64,000 bases of DNA from Acidobacteriota bacterium (GTDB taxonomy: Bacteria; Acidobacteriota; Terriglobia; Terriglobales; Acidobacteriaceae). Under the pieces are notes generated by a model. The model was not told where the DNA came from. It ran no database searches and saw nothing but the letters and a program-made list of their open reading frames with translations. The position numbers and the translations under genes are program-made. Positions 17,267 to 46,122 of this stretch are shown in pieces. The stretch's first letter is position 1. The number at the start of each line of letters is the position of its first letter. The stretch is taken from assembly GCA_003225175.1 (NCBI GenBank), contig QIBA01000056.1, forward strand, positions 23,790 through 87,789, written 5' to 3'.

Positions 17267-20200
17267 CTAGAAGATCACCTTGGCTCCCAGTTGAAGAGTT
17301 CGGGCGTCATAGGCGCTTGTGATCTTGCCCACATCAGTACCGCCGATTGCGCTGTTGACGCCTCCACCGTTTACGTCTCCACGGAATTGGGTGTGGTTCC
17401 AAATGTTGTAGGCCTCGAAACGGAGTTCGGTATGTAGACGCTCAGTGAAGGCGATGTTCTTGAAGAGAGCCATATTCCAGTTGTCACGTCCGGGACCGCG
17501 CAACGCGTTTTTTCGCATGTTGCCGAAGATGGCGGTTGTGCTGCCCGGTATGAGGTTAATGGCAAAGGCTGACGGATCGAACCACTGAATCGTGTTGTTT
17601 CCACTCGACAGCGTTGCGGCTGTTTTCGGGTAGCTGATTGACCCAATCTGATTCGGCCGGACAGCGCAGTTCTGAACCGTCTGGCAGACATTGTTGCCGC
17701 TGACTCCAAGGTTAAGCGGCGCTCCCGATTCCATGGTCACGATTCCTGACAACTCCCATCCGCCGACGGTGTTCTTCAGCAGCGCGTTGGAACTGGAGCG
17801 GAAGAACGGAACGTTGTAGATGAAGTTGACGAAGGCAACATGCGTACGATCGAAGATCGATGGACCCCAATCGTTTTTCCAGCCGAGATACGGATTCGAT
17901 GTGTTGTTGAGATCAAAACCATCGCCGCCGGTTCCGGTGGTAGGATCCAGAGCGCGAGACCACGTGTACGCCCCCTGCAGCGAGAGGTCACGTATCTTGG
18001 ATCGCAGCTCTACCTGAAGTGAGTTGTAGTTCGAGTTCGCGCCGTTTTGGTTTAGGTTGATGCTCTTGTAGCCCAAAAAAGGAACAACCCGGTTGTACTG
18101 CGAGGCTGCCGTTGAATTAGTGATAAAGCTAGGCAGTAAGCTTGCATTTGGCAAGTTGAGTTCCTGGCGGAAGCTCAAGTACCGGTTCTGGTTTCCTACA
18201 TAGGACGTGGACAGTACAGTTTGCCGTCCAAGCTGGTGTTGAACGCCAAGACTGTATTGATAACTGGTTGGATTCTTGTAGTGCTTGGCGTCGAGCTCCT
18301 GAAGATTGTTGACTGTTACCGGAAGCGTCGCTGTACTGATATTGGCATTGGTTTGATCTACCCCGATATGCGGATCGGAAAGCGAGACATTGCTTAGCGA
18401 AGCCGATCCACCGAATAGATTATTGCCTCCAGCCTGGTACATGTCATTGCCCTGGATTCGTTCGAACATGATGCCGAGCCCTCCACGAAGCACCGTTGTT
18501 CCATGTCCAGTCAAATCATAGGCAAAGCCCAGCCGCGGTCCCCAGTTGTTCCAATGATTGTCCACTAGGCCATTGGTTACGCCCGGAGTCTTGCCCGGCA
18601 CCCCAAGACCATTTGCGTACTGCAAGAGCCCGTTGAGTGCGGGATTGGGACCGGTTGCCAGAGCAGGGCTCGCAGCTGTGCATGAAGAATTCGGAATACC
18701 AGCTCCAGAACAAATCTGTGTGCCGTTTGCGTTCGCGAACAGAGGCGCATTGGCGAGATTGTAGAGATCCGGGTAGAAGTTCGACATCTGGCCGTTGATT
18801 TCCGCCGTGTGCGGAATTCCATCCCAACGCAGGCCGAGGTTGAGGGTCAGACGCCTGGTGGCTCGCCAGTTATCCTGAACATATCCAAACCAGGAAACAC
18901 TGTTCCAGTTTCGGTCGTCTTTGAGGGCAGCTTCGCTGTAGCCGCTGGAGAGGCCAAGCAGGAAATCGGCAAAATCGTAGCCGGTGAAATTCCCGTTAAA
19001 TCCGAAGTTGCCCTGGGTGGTTGTCTGCAATGGTTGCAGCTTGCGGAAGTTCAACCATCCGCCGCCGAACTTCCACTGATGAGTTCCCCTCGTCCAGGAC
19101 AGGTCATCGCGAATTTGATAGCTGTCGGCAACATTGCTCCATGGCCACCAGTTCGCGTCGTAACGCGATCCTGTCTTTCCACCCGCGTTCAGGTTGATGA
19201 TTGGAGTGACGTCGGTCGTACTGCCAAACAGCTTATGCTGCGAGAAGCCCGTATCGGTCAACTTGTACTTGCCGGCAGGAAGAATGTTGATGCGATTGCC
19301 GCCATAGTTGAACGCTACTTCGTTGAGTAAGGTCGGGCTAATGATATTCGTTGCATGAACGACCGCGCTGTACGAGGGATTGCCGAATGTGTCGTAGACA
19401 GTAGGCAGGTTCGCGCCACCGCTCCAGCGTGTAGGAATATCGGTCTGCAGAATCTGTTCTGCAATGAAATGCCCGAAGACGGAAAACTTTTCGTTGAAGG
19501 TATGGTCAATCCTGACCAGTTCCTCTTTCACGTTCGTGGGCGAATCCGCGCCGCCAATGAATGTCCGCCCCGAAGTGGGAGCTGGGAATATTCCAGCTTT
19601 TAGCAACGCCTGCGCATTGACATCGAGCAGAGATGCGGCGATGGTGTTGTTGGGAAAGGGTTGGCCCGAACTAAGACGCGCAGCGGTAAATTTCGCCTGC
19701 TGCGCGGAAGAAAGCGTGGAGAAGTTCGGTACGTGCAGGTTCGTTTGGCCGGTATTTAGAACGCCGCCGAAGTTGAGAGCTTCGTTCATGTTTCCGGCAT
19801 ACGTGCTGGGGAATGGGACATTCGTCCTCAGGGCTCCACCCTGGATCAGATCGCGCCATTCCATGTTGTAGAAGAAGAAAGTCTTGGGATCGGAGCCGCT
19901 CTTGAACTTCACTGGCCCACCGACGTTGAAGCCGTAAGTGTTAAACCGCAGCTTCGGCATCTTGTTTTCTGAACCATTCGCGTTAAATCTGGGAGTGAAA
20001 AAGTTTCGAGCGTTGAATGCATCGTTGCGCCCGAACCACCAGCCCGAGGCATGCAAGGTCCTGGTACCGGACTTGAGCGCTGAAGTCACGGTTGCCGAAG
20101 ATGACAGCCCATATTCCGCGCTGTAGTTGGACGTCAACTGCCGGAACTCGGCAATGGCATCGATCGAAGGCATCACAATCGCGCCGGAACCACCTCTATC

Positions 20201-20848
20201 TGCAGCTTCTGCGCCGTCGATCATGTACAGATTATGGGCCACACGTTGACCGTTGAAAGCAACGTTCTGGTCGCCGCCCATCGGAGTCGGAACCTGAAAG
20301 TCTCCCTGCAGGCTACTCGCCCCCGGAGTGAGATTGACAATTGAGTAGAGGCTGCGGCCGTTGGTCTCGAGCTGCGTGATCTGCTCACCAGTGATCACGC
20401 TACTGACTTCGCCGCTGTCGGTCTTGACCGCAATGGAAGCCGCTTCGACTGTGATCGAGGTCTGAGTTGTGCCAACCTTCAGACCGAAATCGACGCGCCG
20501 GCGGTCTCCTACGTTCAGAACGACGCCGGTCGTATCGGCCAGACCGAAGCCGGCCGCCTGGACCTTGACATCATACGTGCCGATCGGAAGCGCGGTTGCC
20601 ACATACTGCCCGGCGTCATTGGTGGCAAGATTACGAACCTGCCCGGTCGCCATATTCGTGATTGTGATCGTGGCATTTGGGATGACAGCGCCTGAGCTGT
20701 CGCTGACCGTGCCAACCAGTGTGGCTTCCTGCGCGAGGGCCTGAGTTGCAAGTATTCCCAGAAACACACTGAGGGCGAGGAGAAGGTGCCTGCGGCGGGA
20801 CGTCGCGGCCTGAATAAGTCTCTCGGCATGCGTGGACGAAAGCTTCAT
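17267..20848 (-). CDS. TonB-dependent outer-membrane receptor with N-terminal carboxypeptidase-regulatory-like domain
   Basis: 1193 aa. Signal peptide, TVSDSSGAVIPNATITITNMATGQ...TNDAGQY (CarboxypepD_reg), plug and 22-strand barrel. C-terminal aromatic residue (…AKVIF). Confidence 0.9.
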   Translation of the reverse strand: MKLSSTHAERLIQAATSRRRHLLLALSVFLGILATQALAQEATLVGTVSDSSGAVIPNATITITNMATGQVRNLATNDAGQYVATALPIGTYDVKVQAAGFGLADTTGVVLNVGDRRRVDFGLKVGTTQTSITVEAASIAVKTDSGEVSSVITGEQITQLETNGRSLYSIVNLTPGASSLQGDFQVPTPMGGDQNVAFNGQRVAHNLYMIDGAEAADRGGSGAIVMPSIDAIAEFRQLTSNYSAEYGLSSSATVTSALKSGTRTLHASGWWFGRNDAFNARNFFTPRFNANGSENKMPKLRFNTYGFNVGGPVKFKSGSDPKTFFFYNMEWRDLIQGGALRTNVPFPSTYAGNMNEALNFGGVLNTGQTNLHVPNFSTLSSAQQAKFTAARLSSGQPFPNNTIAASLLDVNAQALLKAGIFPAPTSGRTFIGGADSPTNVKEELVRIDHTFNEKFSVFGHFIAEQILQTDIPTRWSGGANLPTVYDTFGNPSYSAVVHATNIISPTLLNEVAFNYGGNRINILPAGKYKLTDTGFSQHKLFGSTTDVTPIINLNAGGKTGSRYDANWWPWSNVADSYQIRDDLSWTRGTHQWKFGGGWLNFRKLQPLQTTTQGNFGFNGNFTGYDFADFLLGLSSGYSEAALKDDRNWNSVSWFGYVQDNWRATRRLTLNLGLRWDGIPHTAEINGQMSNFYPDLYNLANAPLFANANGTQICSGAGIPNSSCTAASPALATGPNPALNGLLQYANGLGVPGKTPGVTNGLVDNHWNNWGPRLGFAYDLTGHGTTVLRGGLGIMFERIQGNDMYQAGGNNLFGGSASLSNVSLSDPHIGVDQTNANISTATLPVTVNNLQELDAKHYKNPTSYQYSLGVQHQLGRQTVLSTSYVGNQNRYLSFRQELNLPNASLLPSFITNSTAASQYNRVVPFLGYKSINLNQNGANSNYNSLQVELRSKIRDLSLQGAYTWSRALDPTTGTGGDGFDLNNTSNPYLGWKNDWGPSIFDRTHVAFVNFIYNVPFFRSSSNALLKNTVGGWELSGIVTMESGAPLNLGVSGNNVCQTVQNCAVRPNQIGSISYPKTAATLSSGNNTIQWFDPSAFAINLIPGSTTAIFGNMRKNALRGPGRDNWNMALFKNIAFTERLHTELRFEAYNIWNHTQFRGDVNGGGVNSAIGGTDVGKITSAYDARTLQLGAKVIF

Positions 20849-20908
20849 TGCCAGCCTCCGGAATGGAGATTTTGTGCTTACGACATATCGACTAAAACCT
20901 TACAGATC

Positions 20909-20932
20909 AAAATCTAAATCGATTTAGATTTT
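20909..20932. promoter_or_regulatory. 24-bp perfect palindrome, putative LacI-family operator
   Basis: aaaatctaaatcgatttagatttt, ~60 bp upstream of the TonB-dependent receptor start and downstream of the LacI gene. Near-identical half-sites recur at 39737-39758. Confidence 0.6.
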
Positions 20933-21038
20933 CTCGGCTGGAAACTCTGGCATGGGCTGGGTATTGTTGTCAAATGTTTTTTGCGAAGCCATCTCTCTTT
21001 TATCGCAGCTGGCTCGGCGATGCGACGACGTGTGGATT

Positions 21039-22157
21039 CTACTCGCCGACGGCGTTGTGACCTTGCGAGTTACTGATTGGCGTCTTTTTTGCGCCGGCTG
21101 CCAAAGCGCGCGTCGATTCACGCACGACGAGCATAGGTTCCACCAGGATTTCACGGGACTTTTCTTCAGAATTTTCGATCCGCTTGATTAGCGTGCTGGC
21201 CGCCAGCTCACCCATCCGGATCAGCGGCTGGCGAATGGTCGTTAATCGGGGAACGTTGAAGGCGGCTTGGTCGATATCATCGAAGCCGATCACCGACACG
21301 TCTTTGGGAACCTTCAGGCCGGCATCGCGAAATGCCCGGATCGCTCCGATGGCTGAACCATCATTGAAAGCAACGAGCGCTGTGAAATCGCGTGAAGCCT
21401 TCAACAGCTCTTTGGCTGCATGGTATCCCAAATCGGCCATCGTGGTGTTATTGCACTCGGGATACTTGCCAAGACTGCGGGTCAATCTCGGCGCGATCGG
21501 GATCTTGAGGTCCGCGGCAGCTTTCTGCACGCTCTCCCAGCGATCGTCCGTATCGCCGTTGCCCTCAGGACCACGGAAGAATGCGATCGTACGATGTCCC
21601 AACGAGCGAAGATGCTTTAGAGCTAGACGGGCGGCGCGAGCGTTGTCGATGACGATACTGCTCACGTCGGGAGCTTCCGTGATGTCAGAAACCGCAACCA
21701 CGGGTACAGGTAGCCGCCGCCCGAGTGGAGTGTTGATAAAGATCATGCCCTCGACACCGCGATCCAACAGCGTGTCGGGCGATTTCTCAATCAGCTCCGG
21801 TGCGCCGCGGTGGCTGACAACGAAGTAGAAGTATCCCTGTTGTGCGAGACGTTTCTCAATGCCGCTAATCAGCGATGACGAAAATTCGTCGCCGATATCC
21901 GGGACCAGCACGGCGACACAGTAAGTGCGTTTTCCATGCAAGTACCGGGCAAAGACGTTGGGTCGGTAATTGAACTGCCGCACCGCCTCCCAAATTCGTT
22001 GCTTCGTCTTTTCTGCAATGGTGGCAGCCAGAGGAGAGTCGCTGATCACGACGGAGATGGTGGTGGGCGAGAGATCCAGATGTTTGGCGAGATGCTTGAG
22101 CGTTACTCGATCGCCGTTCCCATTACGGGAGGTAGAACTATGATTTCTTCCCGCCAT
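21039..22157 (-). CDS. LacI-family transcriptional regulator
   Basis: N-terminal HTH VTLKHLAKHLDLSPTTISVVIS plus a periplasmic-binding-protein-like sugar-binding core. Confidence 0.9.
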   Translation of the reverse strand: MAGRNHSSTSRNGNGDRVTLKHLAKHLDLSPTTISVVISDSPLAATIAEKTKQRIWEAVRQFNYRPNVFARYLHGKRTYCVAVLVPDIGDEFSSSLISGIEKRLAQQGYFYFVVSHRGAPELIEKSPDTLLDRGVEGMIFINTPLGRRLPVPVVAVSDITEAPDVSSIVIDNARAARLALKHLRSLGHRTIAFFRGPEGNGDTDDRWESVQKAAADLKIPIAPRLTRSLGKYPECNNTTMADLGYHAAKELLKASRDFTALVAFNDGSAIGAIRAFRDAGLKVPKDVSVIGFDDIDQAAFNVPRLTTIRQPLIRMGELAASTLIKRIENSEEKSREILVEPMLVVRESTRALAAGAKKTPISNSQGHNAVGE

Positions 22158-22311: not shown

Positions 22312-23403
22312 TTACCGCATTCCAGAACCATGTCGTGAGAGTAGATCCAAAACCACGCCATAGGCCGGCTTGGGACGATACTGCTGGTCGAAGAGAGTAC
22401 CCGCTCCATATCCCGGGAAGGAGCGGGTAATCCAGGAGTGGGCATCGCTAAACCCCCATACCTGAATTGCCGTGCAGCCGCGCACTGCCAGACAAGCCCG
22501 AACGACGTTGCCGTATTGTTGCGCCTGCCGCTCCAGATCATGCGGATTGGCCTGTCCAGCGCTGTCCAAGGGGAGGCGTATGTCGAGTTCGGTAATTTGG
22601 ACCTCAAGTCCAAGATCCGTAAAGGCACGCATAGTCCTTTCGAGTCTTGCTAAAGCGGTCGAATCCAGAGCGAAATGACATTGGAATCCGATGCCATCAA
22701 TCGGCACGCCGCGTTTCTTGAAGTCGCGAGCCATGGCCAGAATCGCTTCGAATTTTGGACCACCGCCTTCGAATGCGTAGTCGTTGTAGAACAGCTTGGC
22801 CTTGGGATCAGCCGCGTGAGCGAGCACGAATGCGCGTTCGATGTAGCCGTACGGACCTTCGGCTCCGATTCCGGGTGAGTCATACCAGATCGTCGACCGG
22901 AGGCTACCATCTGGATGAAAAGCTTCATTGACTACGTCCCATGCATATACCGACCCGGCAAAGTGCTTAACCACCGTTTGTATGTGATCAGCCATGAGCT
23001 GCGAAAGTTCATTCCACGTCCAGTTTCCACTGCCGAGCCATTTCGGGACCGCCTGATGCCATAATAGAGTGTGGCCGCGAACTGCCATCTTGTTCTGTTG
23101 CGCAAAACGAACAAGTTCGTCGGCGGGCCCAAAATCAAATTGATCTCGCGCCGGGCGCAGTAAGGACCATTTCATTTCATTCTCGGGCTCAAGCTGATCG
23201 AACTCACGCGCCAGCGTCGTAGCATAGCGGCTGTCCTCGATGATGAAGCCCGGTCTGACGGCGCTTCCAAGATGTATCTTGGCGTGGGCAGCGTTGCGCA
23301 GAGTTCTCGTATCTGTAGAACTTCCGAGCAGGCAGACTACAGCGGCCACAGGTAAGACAAACATTTCGAGCTGACTCCTTCGTTCCTTTAGTTTGCAGCG
23401 CAA
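22312..23403 (-). CDS. GH10 endo-1,4-beta-xylanase, secreted
   Basis: Signal peptide. Catalytic motifs WDVVNEAF (acid/base) and ITELDIR (nucleophile). Confidence 0.9.
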   Translation of the reverse strand: MRCKLKERRSQLEMFVLPVAAVVCLLGSSTDTRTLRNAAHAKIHLGSAVRPGFIIEDSRYATTLAREFDQLEPENEMKWSLLRPARDQFDFGPADELVRFAQQNKMAVRGHTLLWHQAVPKWLGSGNWTWNELSQLMADHIQTVVKHFAGSVYAWDVVNEAFHPDGSLRSTIWYDSPGIGAEGPYGYIERAFVLAHAADPKAKLFYNDYAFEGGGPKFEAILAMARDFKKRGVPIDGIGFQCHFALDSTALARLERTMRAFTDLGLEVQITELDIRLPLDSAGQANPHDLERQAQQYGNVVRACLAVRGCTAIQVWGFSDAHSWITRSFPGYGAGTLFDQQYRPKPAYGVVLDLLSRHGSGMR

Positions 23404-23470: not shown

Positions 23471-26155
23471 GTGAGAAACCGACGATCTTTATCGATGGTG
23501 AACAGTCAGCTATTGGTTTTTCTACTCTCGCTCGTACAATGCTCCGCACTTTTCGCGCAACAATCTAACTCGGATTTCCCTTACAAGAATCCTGACCTGC
23601 CGATCGCACAGCGCGTTGATGACCTGATCTCTCGAATGACGCTCGAAGAGAAGGTCTCGCAGCTCGGCCACACCGCAGATGCCGTTCCCCGATTGGGAAT
23701 TCCTGAGTACAACTGGTGGAACGAAGGATTGCACGGCGTAGCGCGAGCTGGTAATGCCACCGTCTTTCCGCAGGCGATCGGCATGGCGGCTACCTTCGAC
23801 GAGTCCTTAATGCATCGCATCGGAAATGTTATTAGCACGGAATTTCGGGCGAAGTACTATCACGATCAGCATCCCGACGGCAGCACTGACTGGTATCGCG
23901 GTCTGAGCATCTGGTCTCCAAACATTAACATCTTTCGCGATCCACGCTGGGGGCGCGGCCAGGAAACTTACGGTGAAGATCCGTTCCTGACTTCCCGAAT
24001 GGGAATTGCATTTGTCACTGGTTTGCAGGGCGACGATCCCAAATACCTGAAAACAGTTGCCACTTCCAAGCACTTTGCTGTCCACAGCGGACCGGAGCCA
24101 ACTCGGCACAGTGTCGATGTTAAGGCCTCGCGTCATGATATGGAAGACACCTATCTTCCCGCATTCCGCGCAACCGTGGTCGAAGCCAAAGCGCAGTCGG
24201 TGATGTGCGCGTACAACTCACTCAACGGCCAGCCGGCCTGCGCGAACACCGATCTGCTCGAAGAGCACCTGCGGCACGATTGGGGTTTTCAAGGATACGT
24301 AGTCTCCGACTGCGGCGCGGTAACGGACATCTTCAACGGGCATCACTTCAGCAAATCCATGGAAGAAGGCGTGAGTGTGGCGCTCAAGACAGGCACCGAT
24401 CTTATCTGCGGCAATCCCCGCTCGCGCGTAAAGACTGAGCGCGACGCGATACTCCAAGCGGTTCAGCAGGGCCTGATGACTCAGGCCGATCTGGATCGTG
24501 CTCTGCGTCGATTGTTCTCAGCGCGTTTTCGTCTAGGCATGTTCGATCCTCCCTCGCTGGTGCCCTATTCCAACATTGCTTTTGAGGATAACGACAGCGA
24601 AGCTCATCGCCAGCTCGCGGTGCAAGCCGCGCGTGAATCGCTCGTCCTCCTGAAGAATCAGAACCACTTTCTGCCACTCGGGAAGCGGTACTCAACGATC
24701 GCAGTGATTGGTCCGGACGCAGATAATCTTGATGCCCTGGTCGGCAACTACAATGGAACGCCGTCCAGGCCGGTGACGATCCTCGAAGGCATTCGCCGCC
24801 GCTTTTCACAATCGAAGGTGATTTACGCAGAGGGAACAGGTCTTACTGGACCTGTGATGCATGCCATTCCTTCCGACGCTCTTTTCACTGACAATTCCCG
24901 AAGAGAGCATGGGCTTAAGGGAGAGTACTTCGCAAACGTCGAGTTGAAAGACGCGCCGGTCATGACTCGCACTGATAGCACGGTGAACTTCGCCTGGGGA
25001 GATCAGGGAATTTCGCCGCAGTTGCCGAAGAACTATTCCGTACGCTGGACCGGCGTTCTCGTTGCACCGCAAACTGGCGACTACCTGATCGGATTCGCTG
25101 GCCAGGACGGATTCCGTCTTTGGGTGGATGATCAGTTGATCGCGGAAGAATGGACGATTCATCATCCTGCCGACACATTGACGAAGCCGATGCACCTCGA
25201 GAAGGGCCACGCGTATAAGGTTAAGATCGAGTATTTCCAAACGATTCGCAGCGCTGAGGCGCGCTTTGTCTGGAGCATGCCGGGGCAAGACGGGAAGGAT
25301 GCTGTCGATGCCGCGCAGCAGGCCGATCTCGTCATCATGGTGCTCGGTCTCTCGCCACGCATTGAAGGCGAAGAGATGAACGTTCACACCGAAGGATTCG
25401 CCGGGGGAGATCGCACCAGCCTCGATCTACCTGCGCCGCAACAAAAGCTTCTTGAACGAATTCACGCGATCGGCAAGCCGATCATTCTGGTGCTCACGAG
25501 TGGAAGCGCGGTGGCCGTAAATTGGGCTGATCACTATATTCCCGCGATTCTTCAATCCTGGTATCCGGGAGGGGAAGGTGGAACGGCGGTCGCGGAGGCG
25601 ATTGCCGGAGACTTCAGTCCCAGCGGCCGGTTGCCGATAACGTTCTACAAATCGGTTCTTCAACTTCCGCCATTCGAGGACTACTCAATGGCCAACCGAA
25701 CCTACCGCTACTTTCGCGGCGACGCTCTGTATCCCTTCGGATACGGCCTGAGCTACACAACGTTCGCATATCGCAACCCGGAGGTCGACAAGCAGAGCAT
25801 CGCTGCCAATGAGTCGGTGACGATCTCCGTCGATATCGCCAACACCGGCCGGAGAGAAGGTGATGAGATCGCGCAACTATACATAACCCATAACGGGATT
25901 GCCGGAGCGCCTCTGCGTGCATTGCAAGGCTTTCAGCGTGTACATTTAGCGCCAGGCGAGCAAAACAGGGTTTCGTTTAGGCTGCGGGAGCGCGATTTGA
26001 GCGTTGTGGATCAAGATGGGAAACGCCGTATTATTCCCGGAAAGGTCAACGTGTGGATCGGTGGAGGACAACCCATAACGGTGCCGGGCAGGCCCCTGCC
26101 CCCTGGAGCGAGAGCGCAGTTCACAATCACGAGTGAAGCAACTTTGCCCGACTAA
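23471..26155 (+). CDS. GH3 beta-glucosidase/beta-xylosidase with inserted PA14 domain
   Basis: 894 aa. GH3 motifs KHFAVHSGPE and GYVVSDCGAV. PA14-like insertion GLKGEYFANVELKD...WTGVL. C-terminal Fn3-like domain. Confidence 0.9.
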   Translation: MRNRRSLSMVNSQLLVFLLSLVQCSALFAQQSNSDFPYKNPDLPIAQRVDDLISRMTLEEKVSQLGHTADAVPRLGIPEYNWWNEGLHGVARAGNATVFPQAIGMAATFDESLMHRIGNVISTEFRAKYYHDQHPDGSTDWYRGLSIWSPNINIFRDPRWGRGQETYGEDPFLTSRMGIAFVTGLQGDDPKYLKTVATSKHFAVHSGPEPTRHSVDVKASRHDMEDTYLPAFRATVVEAKAQSVMCAYNSLNGQPACANTDLLEEHLRHDWGFQGYVVSDCGAVTDIFNGHHFSKSMEEGVSVALKTGTDLICGNPRSRVKTERDAILQAVQQGLMTQADLDRALRRLFSARFRLGMFDPPSLVPYSNIAFEDNDSEAHRQLAVQAARESLVLLKNQNHFLPLGKRYSTIAVIGPDADNLDALVGNYNGTPSRPVTILEGIRRRFSQSKVIYAEGTGLTGPVMHAIPSDALFTDNSRREHGLKGEYFANVELKDAPVMTRTDSTVNFAWGDQGISPQLPKNYSVRWTGVLVAPQTGDYLIGFAGQDGFRLWVDDQLIAEEWTIHHPADTLTKPMHLEKGHAYKVKIEYFQTIRSAEARFVWSMPGQDGKDAVDAAQQADLVIMVLGLSPRIEGEEMNVHTEGFAGGDRTSLDLPAPQQKLLERIHAIGKPIILVLTSGSAVAVNWADHYIPAILQSWYPGGEGGTAVAEAIAGDFSPSGRLPITFYKSVLQLPPFEDYSMANRTYRYFRGDALYPFGYGLSYTTFAYRNPEVDKQSIAANESVTISVDIANTGRREGDEIAQLYITHNGIAGAPLRALQGFQRVHLAPGEQNRVSFRLRERDLSVVDQDGKRRIIPGKVNVWIGGGQPITVPGRPLPPGARAQFTITSEATLPD

Positions 26156-26451: not shown

Positions 26452-26489
26452 TTGAGGAGTTGCCAAGCGAGGGCTCACCTGGCAACTCC
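26452..26489 (-). terminator. Strong minus-strand terminator-like hairpin inside a long convergent intergenic region
   Basis: 12-bp perfect stem gaggagttgcca/tggcaactcctc, loop 14 nt, followed on the minus strand by TTTTTTT. Confidence 0.55.
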
Positions 26490-38400: not shown

Positions 38401-39216
38401 GACCGGATCAAAAGTATCCAGACCTCCGATCACCTTCGGACTGCTGAAGTCCACCGACAGTGAGAGCGTCACACCCCACGGACGAAAGACGTCCGCAATG
38501 CGCGCGAGCTGAGGAAGGAATTCGGGAGTGAGCACTCGCGGATCGGCGTTGACGTTGTTGACGGTGCATCCATTGATGCCGACCGAAGCCAGCAAACGCG
38601 CATATTCCGCGGCCCGGGTGAGATCGCCGCGCACGCTTCCGTTCTCAAAGAAGACTGATGGACCGGCGTAGCCGCGCTCGATGCGTCCATCGAGATTGTC
38701 CCATTGATCGATCCAGCGCAGCGGCGCATACGGCTGCTGAACCTCATCCAGATATTCGATGCTTTCGCCGAGCGCGATCCGACGAAGAAGCGCGAAGGCT
38801 CCATACAAAACGCCTCGCTCCGTTAAACCTACAACCAGGATGGAATCCACGCCGCGTACTTGCCGCTTTGTCAGCCAGAAACCATCGCCTTGGATCTGCG
38901 GGGGCTGGACATCGGATGCTGCCGAGTGAAGCGCGGCCGTCGTTCCCAAAATGATCGCAGGTTCGGATGAGAGCTCTGCTGCAGCGCGAAAGGGTCGATC
39001 GAGCATTCCGCTGGCCCCTCGAATCACTTCTTGCTGCGCATTCAGAAGCGCTGGAGAATTCCCTAGAGCTACTACGGCACTTGGGATTGTCTGGTACTGC
39101 TGCGCAACTCGTTGTTCCAGGCGCGAGTATCGAAGCCACGCATCTTCGCCACTCTCGGCAGGCAACAGAGCCGGCAGAGCGAGAATGACAAATGTTACAA
39201 ATAGCAGGTGCTTCAC
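35383..39216 (-). CDS. Fusion protein: GH67 alpha-glucuronidase + beta-sandwich domain + C-terminal CE15 glucuronoyl esterase
   Basis: 1277 aa. Signal peptide, GH67-like N-terminal ~700 aa (…GFWLTKRQVRGVDSILVVG…, …GCTVNNVNAD…). C-terminal 400 aa with PPYRLPNPLTLKNGKKVTTADAWWKRRRPEI and GIEGLSRYGKAALVTMAYDRRFAIGFIGSSGEGG matching CE15. Confidence 0.75.
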   Translation of the reverse strand: MKHLLFVTFVILALPALLPAESGEDAWLRYSRLEQRVAQQYQTIPSAVVALGNSPALLNAQQEVIRGASGMLDRPFRAAAELSSEPAIILGTTAALHSAASDVQPPQIQGDGFWLTKRQVRGVDSILVVGLTERGVLYGAFALLRRIALGESIEYLDEVQQPYAPLRWIDQWDNLDGRIERGYAGPSVFFENGSVRGDLTRAAEYARLLASVGINGCTVNNVNADPRVLTPEFLPQLARIADVFRPWGVTLSLSVDFSSPKVIGGLDTFDPVDSRVQAWWSGKVDEIYRLIPDFGGFVVKADSEGRLGPATYGRTPADAANVIARALKPHHGIVFYRAFVYNHHLDWTNLKNDRAKAAYDNFHPLDGKFDDNVIIQIKHGPIDFQVREPVSPLFSGLEKTNEAIELQITQEYLGQQRHLCFLPPMWKQVLDFDLHANHKSSFTKEIVAGKTYRHPMGGFVGVANVGMEPNWLGHPLAMANLYGFARLAWNPDLGVRRIVEEWTRLTFGSDPLVVNTIVNMQLASWNVYESYTGPLGIGTLTNIVGTHYGPGVESSERNGWGQWHRADHDGVGMDRTVATGTGYTAQYSPEVGKIYESLKSTPDELLLFFHHVAYTHRLSSGKTVIQHIYDSHYDGAERAHQFVRDWERLKGRVDGERYQAVLDRLEYQSGHAIVWRDAVTNWFLRLSGIPDVAGRVGHYRERVEADAMQLNAYTPLDISPPETASKGKAVECTSNTKSCAAEFTFNGSAGSYDIDVQYFDMPSGEAKYRLLADGNVLSEWTANDRFPARQLDGDASTRRQLRLVLHTGEKIRIEGLPDGGDPAALDYVEIHPSAAKLASLPEPVHLTSDQDHQRLLDLLHITSLRPGPSGNPAAPNAANTDESKVPPYRLPNPLTLKNGKKVTTADAWWKRRRPEIVEGFDREIYGRLPHSIPKLNWELANISQEMNGDVPVITKKLNGHVDNSAYPFIGVDIQLTLSTPANATGPVPVIMEFGFTPEFLAAMARRFPAANPANGSTWRQQVLAKGWGYAVVIPTTIQADSGEGLTQGIIGLVNKGQPRGLDDWGALRAWAWGASRALDYFQTDNSVDARRVGIEGLSRYGKAALVTMAYDRRFAIGFIGSSGEGGAKIMRRRFGEQVENIASASEYHWMAGNFLKYAGPLTPNDLPVDAHELIALCAPRPVFISTGAPTVEGGWVDAKGMFLGAVDAGPVYRLLGKKDLGATEFPPLETAVIDGDIAFRSHSGGHTTGPNWPTFLSFAERYFKLNNEAGIASAIAR

Positions 39217-39341: not shown

Positions 39342-39623
39342 TCACTGCCCCGCATCATGCGGAACCGTGACATTTACCGACGAGCTAGTCTTCGAGCCCG
39401 CCGAATCTGTCACGGTCACAGTGAGAATATATGCACGATCATTGCTCGAGTTGCCGGTTCTCTCGGAGCGTAGCAAGACATTATGTGCATCCTGAATTAC
39501 GCAATCTGTCGCGGTGTTGCCATCGCCAGTTCCGTTACTGAACTGATTGCTGCTGACGCTCACGACAGGCGCTAGTTGTGTATCGCAATTGTCGCTAATG
39601 CTGTATGAAAGAACGGCGTTCAT
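39342..39623 (-). CDS. Orphan Ig-like (HYR-like) domain fragment. Possible gene remnant
   Basis: 93 aa with DNCD...TDC...AYILTVTVTDSAGSKTSSSVNVTV resembling hyalin-repeat/adhesin beta-sandwich domains. No signal peptide or partner domain. Confidence 0.3.
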   Translation of the reverse strand: MNAVLSYSISDNCDTQLAPVVSVSSNQFSNGTGDGNTATDCVIQDAHNVLLRSERTGNSSNDRAYILTVTVTDSAGSKTSSSVNVTVPHDAGQ

Positions 39624-39736: not shown

Positions 39737-39758
39737 TTATCTAAATCGCTTTAGATAA
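39737..39758. promoter_or_regulatory. Palindrome ttATCTAAAtcgcTTTAGATaa, second copy of the putative LacI operator
   Basis: Shares ATCTAAA-N4-TTTAGAT with 20909-20932. Lies 60 bp downstream of the second LacI gene and upstream of the minus-strand GH67-CE15 transcription unit. Confidence 0.55.
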
Positions 39759-39817: not shown

Positions 39818-40885
39818 TCAACCTGACCGGACGCCGTTCGCCTCTCGGAAGAGATGAAGGTTGGAACGCAGGATAATGGAAGGATTCAAATATTGCGAAC
39901 GCGCTAGCTCTGCACCGTGCAGAAGATGTTCCACCAGGCTGCGAATAGCAAGTTGTCCTTGGACGTATGGCTGCTGATGAATGGATGCTGCGATTGCGCC
40001 TCGCTCGAAGTAAGGAATCATCTTGCGGAAGAGATCGGTAGCAATGAGCCGTACCCGGTCCCCACACTTCGCGGCGCTGAGTGCGCGACAAACCGGCAAA
40101 CAATTTACGGTGTTCACATAAATCCCGGCGAGATCACGTTCGCTTTCGACCAGGTGCATAGTCTTGCGAAAACTCTCGTCCGGATGTTCGTGCGCCTCAA
40201 TCACTGCGACGATCTCGCCGCCGGAAGAACGCTCGCGAAAGCTTGCGATGAACCCTTCAGTCTTCTGACTGTGATCCACCGTCTTCAGCATTCCTGTCAC
40301 GATCGCCACCTTGGCCCCCGCTCCGACGAAATTTGCCATAAGCTCGCCGGCGATCAAGCCGTTCAGCCGTGGCTCAATGCAAACCACTGACGAGCGGCGA
40401 CTCACGGGAGCATCGGTGGAGACACAAACGACGCGCGTCCCGCGCTGCTCTGCGATATCGATTAGGGACGTCATCGCCTCAGGATTTCCCGGTGTAACGA
40501 CGATGCCGTTTACTGCCGACCTGAGCAGCTTGTTGAATGCAGACTGTTCGCCACGTCCTAATTCCGGAACCGCAAGCGGAAGGAACTCGACCCCACGGCC
40601 AGCATAACGATCGGCCTCGTCGCGAATTCCATCCCATAGTTCGTCGTAGAAATACGCGATCTCTCTGGGAACACATATGCCGATGCGAACGTGTCTGCCG
40701 GTGGAAAGTGCCCGTGCAGCAGGGTTGGCCTTGTACCCGATTTGCCGGGCAATTTTCAGAATCCGTTTAAGGGTTTGCGGACTTATGCCGGGGCGGCCGT
40801 GCAGCGCACGGTCCACGGTGCCAATCGAGACCTCCGCCAATTTGGCAATCAGCGGAATGCCGCTCTGCTTTCTCGCCTTCCTCAT
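39818..40885 (-). CDS. LacI-family transcriptional regulator (second copy)
   Basis: HTH IAKLAEVSIGTVDRALHGRPGISPQTLKRILKIARQIGY plus a PBP-like sugar-binding domain. Confidence 0.9.
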   Translation of the reverse strand: MRKARKQSGIPLIAKLAEVSIGTVDRALHGRPGISPQTLKRILKIARQIGYKANPAARALSTGRHVRIGICVPREIAYFYDELWDGIRDEADRYAGRGVEFLPLAVPELGRGEQSAFNKLLRSAVNGIVVTPGNPEAMTSLIDIAEQRGTRVVCVSTDAPVSRRSSVVCIEPRLNGLIAGELMANFVGAGAKVAIVTGMLKTVDHSQKTEGFIASFRERSSGGEIVAVIEAHEHPDESFRKTMHLVESERDLAGIYVNTVNCLPVCRALSAAKCGDRVRLIATDLFRKMIPYFERGAIAASIHQQPYVQGQLAIRSLVEHLLHGAELARSQYLNPSIILRSNLHLFREANGVRSG

Positions 40886-40888
40886 CTG

Positions 40889-43122
40889 CTACTTCACTTC
40901 CAGGGGGACCGAGGTCAGGTCAGCGGAGTTGGGACCAACCATGATCTTGAAGGTCCCTGGCTCAACTATGCGCTTCATCTCACGATTGTAGAAAGGCAGC
41001 TCTTCCGGCCCAATCTGGAACGTCACCGTGCGAGTCTCGCCTGCCTTGATTGAGACGCGCTCGAATCCTTTTAGCTCTTTGATCGGACGTGTAACCGAGC
41101 TAACTTCATCGCGGATATACAACTGCACGACCTCATCGCCGGCACGGCTGCCTGCATTTGTCACGTCAACCGATACCTTCGCCGTTCCGTTTACAGAAAT
41201 CGAGCTGGGCTCGACTCGCACATTGCTGTAATTGAACTTTGTGTAGCTGAGTCCATAGCCGAACGGAAAGAGTGGAGAGTTGTCCGTAAATAAATAAGGA
41301 CGGCGCGCCGATGGCTTCTGATAATAGTAGTCAGGCAGTTGACCAACGGAGCGCGGGACCGTAATGGGGAGCCTGCCGGCAGGATTGTAATCGCCGAATA
41401 GAATCTCGGCCATGGCAATACGCCTAGAGCGAGGAGGCGGGAGACCAGCTCGTCTTGTCGTCCGAAGAGATCCAGGTTGTCGCGATCGCCCAGATGGTTA
41501 TTCGACCATCCCTCCCGCGAGGTTTGTTCGTTCTCTCCGACAACCACAATTCCGATATCGGCTTCTGACAGCACTTCGACGGCGTCGCTGATACGTTTTT
41601 CATCCAGCTTAGGAACGGCCGGCACTACTTTGTCTTCTTCCCAAACCGGTTTGCTCTCCGTGATTCGGCACCCTTCCGCATACAGTACCTCGGCTCTGCC
41701 GCCTACTCTGTTCTTGATTCCTTCGAGGATGCTGACATCGTGACGCGGCGTTCCGCTGTAACCACCAAGGTGAGGCTCACCCGCGTTTGGGCCGATCACA
41801 GCGATGCGTTTGAACTTTGCCAGATCAAGCGGAAGAAGCTGGTTATCGTTCTTGAGCAGAGTGATGGCCTCGCGCGCCGCCTGCAGAGCGAGTTCCCGAG
41901 CCTGTGCAGGCGAAGCGGACAGCACCGCCATCTGCGAGTCTGCGTACGGTTTTTCGAACAAGCCCAATTCGAATTTTGCTCGCAGGACTCGTGCCACCGA
42001 TTCGTTGATGAGTGACTCAGGAATCTGGCCGCTGCGCACGAGGGATGGCAATGTCTTGTAGCAACGCAAAAACGGGAGTTCAATGTCGACTCCTGCAGTG
42101 ATCGCCAGTTTCGCAGCCTGCTCGCAGTTTGCGGCGACATGATGGACGGTTATCAACTGCTCAATGGCGAAATAATCAGAGACCACCAGATTCTTAAAAC
42201 CAAACTCGCCCCGCAAGACGTTGCGCAGCAGCCAGGTGTTGCTGTGATTGGGAATGCCGTCAAGCTCGTTGTAAGACGGCATGATCGCGCGTGCATTGCC
42301 CTTGGCAATTCCGGCTTCAAATGGAGGGAGAAAATATTCGCGCACCGTGCGCTCGGAATAATTCGCGGGAGCCACATTCGCTCCGGCCTCAGGCTGACTG
42401 TGCACCGCGAAATGCTTCAGTGTGGCAAAGACATGATTGGCATCTACCGTCGGACCGTCGCCCTGCAAACCCTTGACCGCAGCGACTCCCATTCGGCCGG
42501 CAAGATATGGGTCTTCGCCGTAGGTCTCCTCAGTGCGTCCCCAACGTGGATCCCGCGCCAGATCCACAACGGGCATCAGGCACTCATGGGCACCTCGAGA
42601 CCGCGCCTCCCGAGCAGTGGCATCAAAGATGCGGCGCACGAGTGCGTCATCCCAGCTGGCAGCGAGCCCAATCGCCTGGGGATACGAAGTCGCGTCGGCC
42701 GCCACAAGGCCGTGCAGGCACTCTTCATGAAACATCAGCGGAATTCCTAATCGCGTGCTCTCAACGGCGATCCGCTGCAGCCGATTCGTGAAGTCCGCCA
42801 TTTCACGCGGCCCGCGATTCTCGCTCGGTCGAGTAACTTGTCCTAAACCATTTCTTAGCAGCTGCCGGGCTTTGGCCTCGTTAAACTCGCCTTTCTCATC
42901 AACGAAGAATTCTTCAGGAAGAAGATCCTGCGAATGGTTTTGCCAGGTCGATTCGAGTTGCGCAACTTTCTCTTCCAGAGTCATGCGGCTTAGCAGGTCA
43001 GTGACGCGCGTCTCGATCGGCAAGGCCGAATTTTTGTAGGACGGCATTGTTTGCTGGGCACCGAGAGCAGACAAGAAAAGCACGCAGACAATTACTATCC
43101 AAAAGTCTCTCCGACGATTCAT
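40889..43122 (-). pseudogene. GH3 beta-glucosidase gene disrupted by an internal deletion/frameshift (ORFs 41191..43122 and 40889..41413 are in different frames)
   Basis: The upstream ORF carries the GH3 catalytic domains (KHFAVHSQPEAG, VVSDYFAIE). The downstream ORF starts at (A)IAEILFGDYNPAGRLPITVP, the Fn3-like C-terminus. About 38 residues expected between ...LLALG and ...AIAEILFGDY (compare the intact GH3 at 23471) are missing, and the frames differ. Confidence 0.6.
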
Positions 43123-43418
43123 TCCGGTCTCTCTCCCGACGACACTCTCTACAACTCCGAAGCGGGATAGTTATACCGTTAACGTACACGAATTGCACTT
43201 CTCTTTTGTTAGGCGTTCTGGTAATAATTGCCGGGCCTCACTCTTCGAGACCGTTTTTCGCGGCGAGTATTGGCGCGCTGCTTTATGGCGAGGCTCGGGA
43301 ATTGGAAGTTCGCCAGGAACATGAAGAATTGCATTCAGGAGACCGGAAAGAGCGCCATTCTTGTCATTGCGGTAACCCTGGGCCATGCTCGGACGAAGAA
43401 GGCGCGCGCGAGGACACA

Positions 43419-44939
43419 GTGTCTTTGAACCTTCTTGGCATCGACGTGGGAACTGGCGGGACTCGCGCTCTACTGATCGAGGAAACTGGGCGAGTCATGG
43501 CTTCAGCCACGGCGGACCATCGTCCTTTTGCATCACCTCAAACAGGATGGGCTGAGCAGGAGCCAGAAGATTGGTGGCGCGCCTGCTGTCAGGCGGTCCG
43601 ACAAGTCATTTCTCAATCTAGAATCACAGCTTCAAAGATCTCGGCGGTTGGTTTCTCCGGCCAGATGCACGGAGCTGTGCTGCTTGATGCCGACGGCCAT
43701 CCTTTGCGTCCTTCATTGATCTGGTGTGATCAACGAAGTACGGAAGAAGCCGCCGAAATTACGCAGCGCATCGGCGCTGAACGGCTCATTCAGTTGACTT
43801 GCAATCCGGCGCTGACCAACTTCACTCTGACTAAGCTTCTTTGGGTGCGCAAACGTGAGCCCCACATCTTCGAGAGGTTCCGGATGTTGCAGCTTCCCAA
43901 AGACTACGTCCGCCTTCGGCTCACAGGCGAGTACGCCATGGATATGGCCGACGCTTCAGGCACGCTATTGCTGGACGTAGCCAATCGCCGTTGGTCTGCC
44001 GAGGTAGCGAGCGCAACCGGGATCAACATGGCAGCGCTGCCAAAGCTCGTCGAATCGCCGGAGGTTTGTGGCACGGTTTCGAAGCATGGAGCTGAGGCGA
44101 CTGGTCTTGCCGCTGGCACTCCGGTTGTGGCTGGCGCTGGGGACCAGGCGGCGGGAGCAGTGGGACTGGGCGTTGTCGCCCCCGGGGCGGTACACGCAAC
44201 CATCGGGACGTCAGGAGTTGTATTCGCATCTACATCGAGTCCCAAAATGGATCCACATGGCCGTCTGCACACCTTCTGCCATGCTGTTCCAGGTCGCTGG
44301 CACGTGATGGGCGTAACTCAGGCCGCTGGCCTGTCTCTGCGCTGGTTCCGGGATCACTTCGTGCCGACGTCATCTGGCAATCGCGATCCATACGATGTCC
44401 TCGCTGAGGAAGCCTCCTCTGTAGGTCCAGGATCAGACGGCGTTCTCTGGGCTCCTTACTTGATGGGCGAGCGCACACCTCATCTTGATCCCGAGGCTCG
44501 CGCGGCGCTGGTGGGCCTCTCTGCGAATCATCGCCGTGCTCACGTCGTGCGAGCCATCATGGAGGGAGTGGCTTTCAGTCTGCGCGACTCGTTCTCGATC
44601 TTCGAAGAGCTGCAAGTACCAGTTACAAACATTCGTCTCGGAGGCGGAGGAGCACGTTCGCCCCTGTGGCGGCAGATCCAGGCTGACGTCTATTCTCACA
44701 ATGTGGAAATTGTGGAGGCGGAAGAGGGAGCCGCATACGGCGCCGCGCTTCTGGCGGGCGCCGGCGCCAAAGTATGGAATACAGTGGATGAAGCCTGCCG
44801 CAGTGCTGTCCGGGTTAAGAGCGTAGTTGGCCCAAATCGGGAGGCAGCCCAGATTATGCAGCGGCAATACGCAACGTATCGCCGAATTTATCCAGCACTG
44901 CGACACATCCGCGATTCATATTCGAGTCAAACAGCCTAG
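43419..44939 (+). CDS. xylB: Xylulokinase (FGGY family)
   Basis: [18 protein letters not shown] (FGGY N-terminal motif) and [12 protein letters not shown]. Start placed at GTG 43419. The in-frame ORF extends to 43047 but has a non-homologous N-terminal extension. Confidence 0.85.
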
Positions 44940-44958
44940 CGATTCGCAAGGAGACTTC

Positions 44959-46122
44959 ATGCCCAGTAATGATTATCAACCCAAGCCCGAGCACAAATTC
45001 TCTTTCGGATTGTGGACGATTGGGAATCGCGGACGCGATCCTTTTGGCGAGGCTGTGCGCCCGACGATCCCGCCGAACGACATTGTTGCTCTGCTGGCTG
45101 AAGTAGGAGCATGGGGCGTGAATCTTCACGACAATGACCTCGTTCCAATCGATGCCAGTCCGTCGGAGCACGACCGCATTGTGCGCGAGTTTAAAAAAGC
45201 GTGCGAGCGCCATGGCGTCGTCGTGCCGATGGCCACCGTGAGCCTTTTTTACGACCCTGTATTTCGTGACGGCGCGTTCACAGCTAATGATCCCGAGGTC
45301 CGCGCTTATGCTGTGCAAAAAACTATGCGCGCCATGGACCTCGGCGCGGAACTCGGAGCGAAGATCTTTGTGCTCTGGGGCGGACGTGAAGGCACGGAAA
45401 CAGATGCATGCCGCCGTCCTGACCACGCGGTTAAGAACCTGCGCGAGTCCATCAACTATCTTTGCGAGTACAACATCGATAAGAAGTATGCATACAAGTT
45501 TGCGCTCGAAGCCAAGCCGAACGAGCCGCGAGGCGACATCTATATGCCGACTACAGGGGCATACCTGGGACTAATTACCTCGCTCGATCATCCTGAGATG
45601 GTCGGGGTAAATCCCGAAGTGGCACACGAGCACATGGCTGGTCTTAATTTCGTCCACGCCGTCGCCCAAGCGTGGGAAGCGGGAAAGCTCTTTCACATCG
45701 ATCTGAACGATCAATATCCCGGGCGCTATGATCAGGATCTGCGCTTTGGATCAGCGACACCCAAAGCTATGTTCTGGCTCGTGAAGTTTCTCGAAGACGT
45801 AGGCTACGAGGGTCCTCGACACTTTGACGCTCATGCGTATCGTACTGAAGATATCTCGGGCGTGAAGGACTTCGCGCGCGGATGCATGCGCACCTACCTC
45901 ATTCTTAGAGAGAAGGCCAGTCGCTGGAATGCCGATAAGGAAATTCGCGAGATTCTGGCTGAGGTAAACGGTACTCCATCAGGTCATGTAGGAAAATACT
46001 CGAGCCAGAATGCGAAGTCTTTGTTGAGCAAGTCTTTCGATCGCGCAACGCTTTCCAAAAAAGGACTCCAGTATGAGCGCCTCGATCAGCTTACGATCGA
46101 CCTTTTACTTGGAGCGCGTTGA
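44959..46122 (+). CDS. xylA: Xylose isomerase
   Basis: [18 protein letters not shown] and a metal-binding TIM barrel. Start at ATG 44959, preceded by AAGGAGA. Confidence 0.9.

Follow-up and report, generated by a model that had tools for sequence, protein, structure and literature searches.

A probable xylan utilization neighborhood with two Oar-type TonB-dependent transporters in a Terriglobales acidobacterium

Loci that place TonB-dependent transporters (TBDTs) beside carbohydrate-active enzymes (CAZymes) for xylan, with no SusD protein, are established in Xanthomonas and Caulobacter; they are known as carbohydrate utilization loci containing TBDTs (CUT loci), and their receptors are induced by xylan and xylose (Blanvillain 2007, PMC1790865). 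Here we analyzed a 64,000-nt stretch of acidobacterial contig QIBA01000056.1 (the window), and within it the region 17267-46122 together with a tetratricopeptide repeat (TPR) protein gene that lies just outside. A preliminary description had read this region as a SusD-less glucuronoxylan utilization locus built around two large TonB-dependent receptors, here named TBDR1 and TBDR2. We estimate at about 70% the probability that the region is a xylan/glucuronoxylan utilization neighborhood whose organization resembles that of a partial proteobacterial CUT locus and not that of a Bacteroidota polysaccharide utilization locus (PUL). The novelty that the preliminary description implied for receptor-mediated uptake of xylo-oligosaccharides without SusD was overstated, since such uptake is established for Proteobacteria (PMC1790865).

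The likeness to the CUT loci of Xanthomonas campestris and Caulobacter crescentus lies in a multipartite layout of TBDTs that, without SusD, stand beside sugar regulators and xylanolytic CAZymes, in the presence of more than one TBDT per polysaccharide, and in operator motifs common to TBDT and enzyme promoters (PMC1790865). The proteobacterial TBDTs respond to xylan and xylose. The TBDTs of the window are of another kind: they are proteins of about 1,190 aa of the Oar/PF25183 type with a CarboxypepD_reg N-terminal extension (NTE), not classical proteobacterial transporters. In further contrast to the CUT loci, the window has a ROK regulator in an operon with one TBDT, CE15 and FjoAcXE-type esterases, and a conserved TPR partner gene. 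The TBDTs adjoin carbohydrate-degrading enzymes and sugar-related regulators, as in a CUT locus, and the inner-membrane sugar transporter of a CUT locus is missing, which makes the region a partial CUT locus under the published definition (PMC1790865). On this comparison the locus is a CUT-like xylan system in another phylum, which extends the CUT/PUL paradigm and overturns no current concept.

Xylan PULs of Bacteroidota likewise hold TBDTs with a carboxypeptidase-regulatory-like N-terminus near GH10, GH3, GH67, CE15 and acetyl-xylan esterase (AcXE) genes and a regulator, and it was in such PULs that FjoAcXE and several CE15 enzymes were first discovered. The window differs from them in lacking a SusD-like lipoprotein, in the PF25183 barrel of its TBDTs, for which NCBIfam gave no SusC/RagA match, in its LacI and ROK regulators in place of hybrid two-component systems or extracytoplasmic function sigma/anti-sigma factors, and in enzymes without lipoprotein signals. 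The third system of relevance is Oar of Myxococcus xanthus, whose likeness to TBDR1 and TBDR2 is one of architecture (signal peptide, PF13620 NTE, TonB box, plug and large barrel; PMC6434023). Oar has its own Ton system adjacent and serves protein export in development; the TBDTs of the window sit instead in sugar-regulated CAZyme clusters. Acidobacteriota, which belong to the most abundant bacteria of soils, encode giant Oar-type TBDTs in large numbers. Their abundant TBDTs, with a presumed role in oligosaccharide import, are noted in the literature in general terms only; our literature search found no paper showing a xylan-responsive acidobacterial TBDT, and no Oar-type acidobacterial TBDT with an assigned substrate.

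Families were assigned by Pfam, NCBIfam and PDB sequence searches on the listed open reading frames (ORFs) of the window, and signal peptides were judged by inspection of N-termini. The L-numbered loci used for comparison are other metagenome or genome contigs that carry homologues; L001 is a metagenome scaffold 99.6-100% identical to the window and L015 is a contig identical to it. Homologues are named as Terriglobales or Acidobacteria bacterium metagenome-assembled genomes (MAGs), the closest genome match being 'Acidobacteria bacterium gp1 AA112', and the host is a soil Terriglobales acidobacterium of a MAG lineage, in agreement with the Acidobacteriota origin proposed before. Every gene family named in the preliminary description was recovered at its position (Table 1), and the family assignments support a gene content coherent for glucuronoxylan debranching and xylose catabolism. 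Some entries needed qualification. Both GH3 genes are present, the second split by a 106-bp deletion in the window; there are indeed two CE15 domains, of which one forms the GH67 protein's C-terminal domain and has no separate gene; and the SGNH acetyl-esterase candidate is an SGNH esterase, not of a generic kind but of the two-domain FjoAcXE-like type. To call the breakdown complete was too strong, given that an inner-membrane transporter and a glucuronate pathway are missing and one GH3 gene is disrupted.

Table 1. Genes and predicted control elements of the region, in order of position in the window
Feature	Position	Strand	Details
Exported all-TPR protein	15696-16844	-	382-aa ORF, likely start M10; Pfam TPR families to 1e-46
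Terminator-like hairpin	17215-17242	-	Directly after TBDR1 stop; 11-bp GC-rich stem and T-run
TBDR1, Oar-type TonB-dependent transporter	17267-20848	-	1,193 aa; Pfam CarboxypepD_reg 2.5e-19, Plug, OMP_b-brl_4 8e-185
Operator-like site A1, perfect palindrome ATCTAAATCGATTTAGAT	20912-20929	.	LacI type, CG center; 64 bp upstream of TBDR1 ATG
LacI regulator 1 (LacI1)	21039-22157	-	372 aa, directly upstream of TBDR1; Pfam LacI and Peripla_BP_3
GH10 endo-xylanase	22312-23403	-	Pfam PF00331 1.7e-102; single catalytic domain, N-terminal signal sequence
GH3 with PA14 insert and Fn3-like domain (GH3-PA14), beta-xylosidase-like	23471-26155	+	894 aa, signal peptide; Pfam
Strong terminator-like hairpin	26454-26491	-	Downstream of TBDR2; 17-bp stem and T-run
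TBDR2, Oar-type TonB-dependent transporter	26818-30372	-	1,184 aa; Pfam; second gene of ROK-TBDR2 unit
ROK regulator	30439-31656	-	405 aa; MarR-like winged helix-turn-helix and ROK domain, NagC/Mlc/XylR type; Pfam, NCBIfam
ROK-TBDR2 promoter with operator-like site C CATAAAGTTCGGGGCGCGAATTTAATT, imperfect palindrome	31687-31735	-	Conserved promoter TTGACA-18-TAAAGT, overlapping site C at 31687-31713
CE15-B (fungal-like) glucuronoyl esterase, standalone	32073-34007	+	644 aa, signal peptide; Pfam GCE_fung 7.7e-59
FjoAcXE/PbeAcXE-like acetyl-xylan esterase	34208-35434	+	408 aa, signal peptide; CBM-like N-terminal domain and SGNH
GH67-CE15 fusion	35383-39216	-	1,277 aa; signal peptide, GH67 24-695, beta-sandwich ~699-834, CE15 ~848-1262
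Operator-like site A2 ATCTAAATCGCTTTAGAT	39739-39756	.	Upstream of GH67-CE15, ~520 bp from start; just after LacI2 stop
LacI regulator 2 (LacI2)	39818-40885	-	355 aa, downstream of GH3b; Pfam
GH3b, beta-xylosidase-like, disrupted in window sequence	40889-43122	-	Pfam; two overlapping ORFs
Operator-like site B ACCGTTAACGTACACGAA, core CGTTAACG	43175-43192	.	Divergent GH3b/xylB promoter region
xylB xylulokinase	43419-44939	+	506 aa, GTG start; NCBIfam TIGR01312 565 bits vs cutoff 380
xylA xylose isomerase, Arthrobacter/actinomycete type	44959-46122	+	387 aa; TIGR02631 510.7 bits vs cutoff 447

TBDR1 and TBDR2 share only about 26% identity, and both have the build of the Oar subclass (signal peptide, PF13620 NTE, plug with TonB box, barrel), the TBDR2 plug falling at 21.5 bits under the Pfam cutoff of 23.9. 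In TBDR1 the signal peptide is followed by the CarboxypepD_reg NTE (residues 43-123), a TonB-box-like TSITVEAA, the plug (144-251) and the barrel (258-1186); in TBDR2 the NTE spans residues 46-126, the TonB-box-like segment is ETTVEVNA, and a divergent plug precedes the OMP_b-brl_4 barrel. The carboxypeptidase-regulatory-like N-terminal domains proposed for the receptors are thus PF13620 in both, of the same clan as the extension of SusC-type transporters (PF13620/PF13715). An AlphaFold2 model of TBDR2, built on a 56-sequence alignment, reached a mean confidence (pLDDT) of 64 with the plug unresolved and was uninformative on lids or extra domains. With this low-confidence model Foldseek returned a generic TBDT fold, PfeA and FepA ranking at the top and SusC at rank 41.

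The absence of a SusD-like gene held up, because all ORFs of at least 300 aa in the whole window were assigned to other families and behind each TBDT gene stands a terminator-like hairpin instead of a co-transcribed gene. The term 'SusD-less' is therefore literally true, and the system is possibly not partner-less, since a conserved exported TPR protein follows TBDR1 (see below). Elsewhere in the window, a third Oar-type TBDT gene (54309-57725, minus strand; 1,138 aa, 29% identical to TBDR1) has no CAZyme neighbors and adjoins a gene for a molybdopterin-binding oxidoreductase subunit (51478-53724).

Operator-like palindromes link the transporter genes to the enzyme genes. The operator A palindrome ATCTAAATCGNTTTAGAT has two sites (four strand-matches) in the window against 0.14 expected. 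Site A1 lies just downstream of a conserved TTGACA-N17-CAGAGT promoter; palindrome and promoter are both kept in front of the TBDR1 orthologues of L012, L013, L019 and L023, a further copy of the palindrome stands upstream of GH10-GH67/CE15 in L012, and none was found in loci without TBDR1. The operator B element GTGTACGTTAACGG recurs in the spacer between xylB/xylA and the divergent GH3b gene of L004, L013 and L033 and upstream of a GH3b-like gene in L032, which with the window gives five xyl/GH3b promoter regions in all; in L030, L033 and L040 a related palindrome, AACCGTTAACGTTAACGGT, stands upstream of distant TBDR1-like genes. The ROK-TBDR2 promoter carries TTGACA-18-CATAAAGTTCGGGGCGCGAATTTAAT, and the operator C element at this promoter is near-identical in L004, L006, L007 and L008 and recognizable, twice, in L011 (six loci including the window). 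A matrix of this element also detected sites in L005, L009 and L010, three loci outside the training set, in each case directly upstream of a TBDR2 homologue, and we regard the element as the candidate ROK operator.

From gene adjacency, LacI1 would bind TCTAAAnCGnTTTAGA, present at TBDR1 and upstream of GH67-CE15, LacI2 would bind GTGTACGTTAACGG in the GH3b/xylBA promoter region, and the ROK protein would bind the AAAGTTCG-N-CGAATTT element present at ROK-TBDR2. The three repressor/operator pairs probably control expression, and the sites argue for sugar-responsive control of both TBDTs; they are the best in silico stand-in for co-induction.

The company of each transporter is conserved in relatives. 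A ROK gene directly precedes TBDR2 in L004, L006, L007, L008 and L011, and the order in L005 is TBDR2-like gene, TPR+vWA (von Willebrand factor A) gene, ROK; identity to TBDR2 is 40-92% across these loci. The FjoAcXE-like SGNH gene adjoins ROK/TBDR2 in L004, L006, L007, L008 and L011, and GH67, with or without CE15, in L004, L005, L006 and L011; the short contigs L007 (10.1 kb) and L008 (11.7 kb) yielded no GH67. GH10 adjoins TBDR2 in L004 and L011, and one locus has GH115. A scan of genome contigs with TBDR2 gave three loci only. For TBDR1, LacI1 is the upstream neighbor in L013, L019 and L023, and L013 has the contiguous arrangement xylA-xylB<>GH3b-LacI2-LacI1-TBDR1, whose GH3b-LacI2-LacI1 order is shared with L004. 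TBDR1 lies a few kb from GH10(CBM4_9)-GH67/CE15 in L012 and beside a CE15 gene and an SGNH/CE4 gene in L014. More distant TBDR1-like genes have xylA and a GH3b-like gene nearby in L033 (about 50% identity) and a GH3b-like gene in L032 (about 43%). Judged from these contigs, both transporter families recur with xylan and xylose genes despite shuffled gene order.

The same comparison corrects the picture of a locus built around one unit: the region is a mosaic with a gene remnant in it, and its transcription units, at least 5-6 in number and spread over both strands, have another arrangement in close relatives. The remnant is a 93-aa ORF (39342-39623, minus strand) that corresponds to the C-terminus of a large protein of repeat/adhesin-like type. 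L006 has this protein intact upstream of its fusion gene, at 76% nucleotide identity to the remnant. The remnant marks the rearrangement that put the GH3b-LacI2 block beside GH67-CE15.

GH3-PA14 has xylan 1,4-beta-xylosidases (7VC6 and 7ZB3) as its top PDB matches. GH3b lacks 106 bp at 41421/41422 relative to L001, by which about 35 aa are lost and the frame is shifted; the intact gene of L001 encodes 779 aa and matches the beta-xylosidase 7ZB3 at 7.9e-206. A programmed frameshift was ruled out, as about 35 codons rather than one base are missing. The deletion may be biological or an assembly artifact, since L001 is itself flawed, with an N-run in LacI2 and a standalone CE15 split by a frameshift; both assemblies carry local defects or strain variants. 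The scores of xylA and xylB exceed the NCBIfam equivalog cutoffs, and the xylB gene call agrees with that in L001. All hydrolases and esterases have signal-peptide-like starts, and XylA and XylB have none. NCBIfam searches found no inner-membrane sugar transporter in the locus; the nearest gene of the major facilitator superfamily (MFS), at 47242-48486, has its best matches among L-lactate and oxalate/formate MFS families, and for this reason we describe the locus as lacking a sugar permease. In L033, an SSF sodium:solute symporter gene (8357-10186) beside xylA is a candidate for the inner-membrane transporter absent from the window.

The GH67 part of the GH67-CE15 fusion has all three Pfam domains (67N, 67M and 67C) and is close to Geobacillus AguA (7.6e-225); compared with the AguA structure 1K9D, the segments KADSE, GPIDFQ and ITQEY, in which its catalytic residues lie, are kept and the equivalents of E285, D364 and E392, which we take to be the GH67 catalytic acid (Glu) and base (Asp/Glu) residues, are conserved. 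The CE15 part is of the bacterial type, with the nucleophile motif GLSRYGK conforming to GxSRxGK and with the catalytic His. The architecture occurs in about 30 independent 90%-identity clusters (ENA, JGI, NCBI, Logan), so the fusion is real; clusters with a named source are Terriglobales MAGs, three further clusters add an SGNH domain and reach 1,573 aa, and most relatives are 842-aa GH67 proteins without CE15. A representative search with the C-terminal 878 aa returned many multidomain CE15 proteins and was uninformative on the spread of GH67-CE15. No paper found by literature search names a GH67-CE15 fusion, which is thus previously undescribed in the literature searched.

Chemically the pairing is sensible: GH67 enzymes are expected to need a free carboxylate, which CE15 uncovers. 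Known multicatalytic CE15 enzymes (CkXyn10C-GE15A, BeCE15A-Rex8A, CesA CE3-CE15 and OtCE15C-GH106) also join CE15 to another xylan-active catalytic domain, the partners being GH10, GH8, CE3 and GH106 (PMC10154605). As in the GH8 (Rex) fusion, the partner here is oligosaccharide-specific, an arrangement that the CE15 review terms 'puzzling' (PMC10154605). The fusion described here differs in that its partner, GH67, has as its target the same sugar whose ester bond is broken by CE15, and in that some relatives add an SGNH domain. The substrate of GH67 is restricted to oligosaccharides with 4-O-methylglucuronic acid (MeGlcA) at the non-reducing end (PMC5329029).

GH67 + CE15 + SGNH triple fusions of 1,280-1,573 aa were observed as P0030, P0031 and P0032 (L005:10001-14509). 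P0032, of 1,280 aa, covers 81% of the query and is without the GH67 N-terminal domain. The triple-fusion gene in L005 is followed directly by the genes for a TBDT, the TPR+vWA protein and ROK, and the SGNH domain of these fusions is only about 25% identical to the FjoAcXE-like esterase of the window.

In the standalone CE15, the catalytic domain spans residues ~52-478 and carries the motif GCSYAGK. The best PDB match is PrCE15 of Piromyces (8TRX, 1.6e-91), which has the same GCSYAGK with its Arg-to-Tyr change; the crystallized PrCE15 and most glucuronoyl esterases of anaerobic fungi carry this change. The C-terminal domain (~480-644, 165 aa) had no Pfam match; residues 480-644 are rich in Gly, Thr and Pro and contain four Cys, and could be an unclassified binding module. 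The SGNH esterase matches PDB 7TOG over the full length of both domains (1.1e-105). With FjoAcXE and PbeAcXE (PMC5863359, PMC9105624) it shares the arrangement of a CBM-like (carbohydrate-binding module-like) and an SGNH domain, the GHPGSR loop with the equivalent of Arg139, which binds the MeGlcA carboxylate, and the DxLHP motif (here GDHLHP). It differs from them in reading LGDSITDGHG where PbeAcXE has LGNSITDGRG, that is, GDSI for the proposed signature GNSI and His at Arg193. Esterases of this family remove 3-O-acetyl groups from xylose that bears 2-O-MeGlcA and increase MeGlcA release by alpha-glucuronidase about tenfold (PMC9105624).

The TPR protein, directly downstream of TBDR1, lay outside the region first described. 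It has a signal peptide that ends in AHA|Q, of the signal peptidase I type, and no lipobox Cys, and Pfam and PDB sequence searches gave generic TPR solenoid matches only and no SusD; for these reasons it is not homologous to SusD and is probably not anchored at the surface. In L012 and L014 the gene directly downstream of the TBDR1 orthologue is 66% and 56% identical to it, respectively. Scanning metagenomes with the TPR protein gave 38 loci; 16 of them were informative, with a true homologue and no less than 600 bp of sequence upstream of it. In 15 of these 16, a TBDR1-family gene has its 3' end upstream on the same strand, usually with a gap of 120-430 bp, and the pairing holds while identity drops to 34-50% for the TBDT and 41-57% for the TPR protein. 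L013 has no TPR gene downstream of TBDR1. In L033 (7126-8217), L032 (2714-3760) and L014 (14900-15880) the pair is followed by another TPR protein, whose N-terminal domain is CarboxypepD_reg-like. Among other possibilities, the exported TPR protein downstream of TBDR1 may serve as an assembly factor, in NTE or TonB coupling, as a chaperone, or in substrate delivery.

The TPR+vWA protein that follows the TBDT in L005 was rejected as an orthologue on account of its different architecture. An Rfam match to the small RNA Acido-Lenti-1 (17086-17130, plus strand; 38.5 bits, gathering score 37) lies in the spacer that separates the TBDR1 stop from the TPR gene; the identical contig L015 also has it, 16 other TBDR1-TPR loci do not, and it was rejected as a part of the pair.

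Taken together, the gene families suggest the following route. The exported GH10 would cut xylan to oligosaccharides, outside the cell or at its surface, and the two Oar-architecture TBDTs would take the products through the outer membrane by a TonB-dependent process. TBDR1 probably takes neutral xylo-oligosaccharides, because it is tied to the LacI regulators, xylAB and GH3. TBDR2, which is tied to ROK, probably takes MeGlcA-decorated aldouronic acids, because its conserved company (GH67, AcXE and CE15) acts only at the MeGlcA branch. In the periplasm, CE15 would take ester-linked lignin alcohols off the uronic carboxylate, the FjoAcXE-like esterase would next take the 3-O-acetyl group off the branched xylose, and GH67 would then take MeGlcA from the non-reducing end; the CE15-GH67 fusion would channel the de-esterified intermediate. 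GH3 beta-xylosidases would then free xylose, an unlinked permease would bring it into the cytoplasm, and XylA and XylB would pass it to the pentose-phosphate pathway.

Several observations weigh against this reading. Apart from SusC, the only characterized TBDT with a PF13620 NTE is Oar, which is needed for secretion of PopC and not for import (PMC6434023). The locus has no inner-membrane sugar transporter and, by NCBIfam, no genes for uronate or glucuronate catabolism, and GH3b is disrupted in the window. In the standalone CE15, Tyr replaces the oxyanion/transition-state Arg, and the SGNH esterase departs from its family at GNSI and Arg193. The genes are spread over several transcription units that relatives arrange differently, and TBDR2 homologues at up to 65% identity (L009 and L010) have no xylan genes beside them. 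The Oar precedent raises the alternative that the Oar-type TBDTs export the Sec-exported xylanolytic enzymes (GH10, CE15 and others) across the outer membrane, as Oar does with PopC. The signal peptides on all hydrolases of the locus, the lack of any other outer-membrane secretion route encoded nearby, and the TBDR2 model, which by Foldseek is no closer to SusC than to other TBDTs, are in line with this. We consider export quite unlikely, and less likely than import. The locus cannot do without uptake: the substrates of GH67 and GH3 are oligosaccharides and XylAB is cytoplasmic, so that products have to enter, with the TBDTs as the sole candidates in the locus. The regulatory evidence also speaks against export, as sugar-regulator-type operators are common to the TBDT, enzyme and xyl promoters. 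By precedent, the xylan/xylose-induced TBDTs of CUT loci are importers (PMC1790865).

The variable gene order could also mean that there is no single system here, just small, recently shuffled operons adjacent by chance in this lineage, with TBDTs whose substrates could be other glycans, sugar acids or lignin-derived aromatics. Order varies even among relatives of 71-92% identity; the remnant at 39342-39623 and the 106-bp GH3b deletion speak of recent change, the two TBDTs are highly divergent, and TBDR2 homologues of about 65% identity lie beside unrelated genes or genes for a short-chain dehydrogenase/reductase (SDR) and an enolase-superfamily protein. In one such case the neighbors are ROK, an SDR and an enolase-superfamily dehydratase, a neighborhood that suggests sugar-acid metabolism. 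This alternative is unlikely in our view: around each TBDT, many independent contigs show the same set of partners, operator A ties TBDR1 to GH67-CE15 or GH10 in two lineages, and the CGTTAACG-type palindrome ties distant TBDR1-like genes to xylA/GH3b. SusD is itself built on TPR-like helices, and a further alternative is that the TPR protein is the functional SusD counterpart of TBDR1, for substrate delivery or as a lid, in which case the system would not be truly SusD-less. The adjacency in 15 of 16 informative loci despite divergence and the second, CarboxypepD_reg-like TPR protein of some lineages would fit. We judge it very unlikely, because the copies in the window and L012 have no lipobox cysteine, the protein is a canonical, consensus-like TPR solenoid without a SusD match in Pfam or the PDB, a terminator-like hairpin separates its gene from TBDR1, L013 has no such gene there, and a periplasmic role (assembly, TonB/NTE coupling or chaperone) is at least as likely. 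A partial CUT-like xylan neighborhood therefore remains our preferred interpretation. Going beyond it, Terriglobales might own a glycan-uptake apparatus in which an Oar-type TBDT and a dedicated exported TPR protein, with a CarboxypepD_reg-TPR protein in some lineages, replace SusD, and in which GH67-CE15, with or without SGNH, cleaves lignin-carbohydrate esters on imported aldouronic oligosaccharides in the periplasm and not on the polymer outside; we put this forward as a doubtful, tentative idea.

Three sub-findings stand out: the GH67-CE15 fusion, the ROK-TBDR2 operon with its conserved operator-like site, and the TBDT-TPR pair. The fusion bears on the question of whether glucuronoyl esterases act on polymeric lignin-carbohydrate complexes or on oligosaccharides, and it offers biomass work a natural, ready-made enzyme with two debranching functions. 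From the conserved TBDT-TPR pair comes a candidate accessory factor for Oar-type transporters. The locus and its relatives further offer testable pairings of TBDR2 with MeGlcA-decorated xylo-oligosaccharides and of TBDR1 with xylo-oligosaccharides, together with their predicted regulators and operators.

Two further features of the window deserve mention. A gene at 1380-4820 on the minus strand encodes a 1,146-aa protein with polysaccharide deacetylase and family-2 glycosyltransferase domains, which suggests an exopolysaccharide synthase/deacetylase fusion, and it adjoins a gene for a PMT_2-like membrane protein (4951-6330). In the 662-bp convergent spacer between GH3-PA14 and the TBDR2 terminator, the segment 26222-26371 holds five copies of AACAGYGWAT (at 26222, 26234, 26341, 26351 and 26362), which occurs nowhere else in the window. 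The copies lie beside an inverted repeat, GCAACGGAT...ATCCGTTGC, and could form a binding array for a regulator, a gene for a small RNA or a miniature mobile element.

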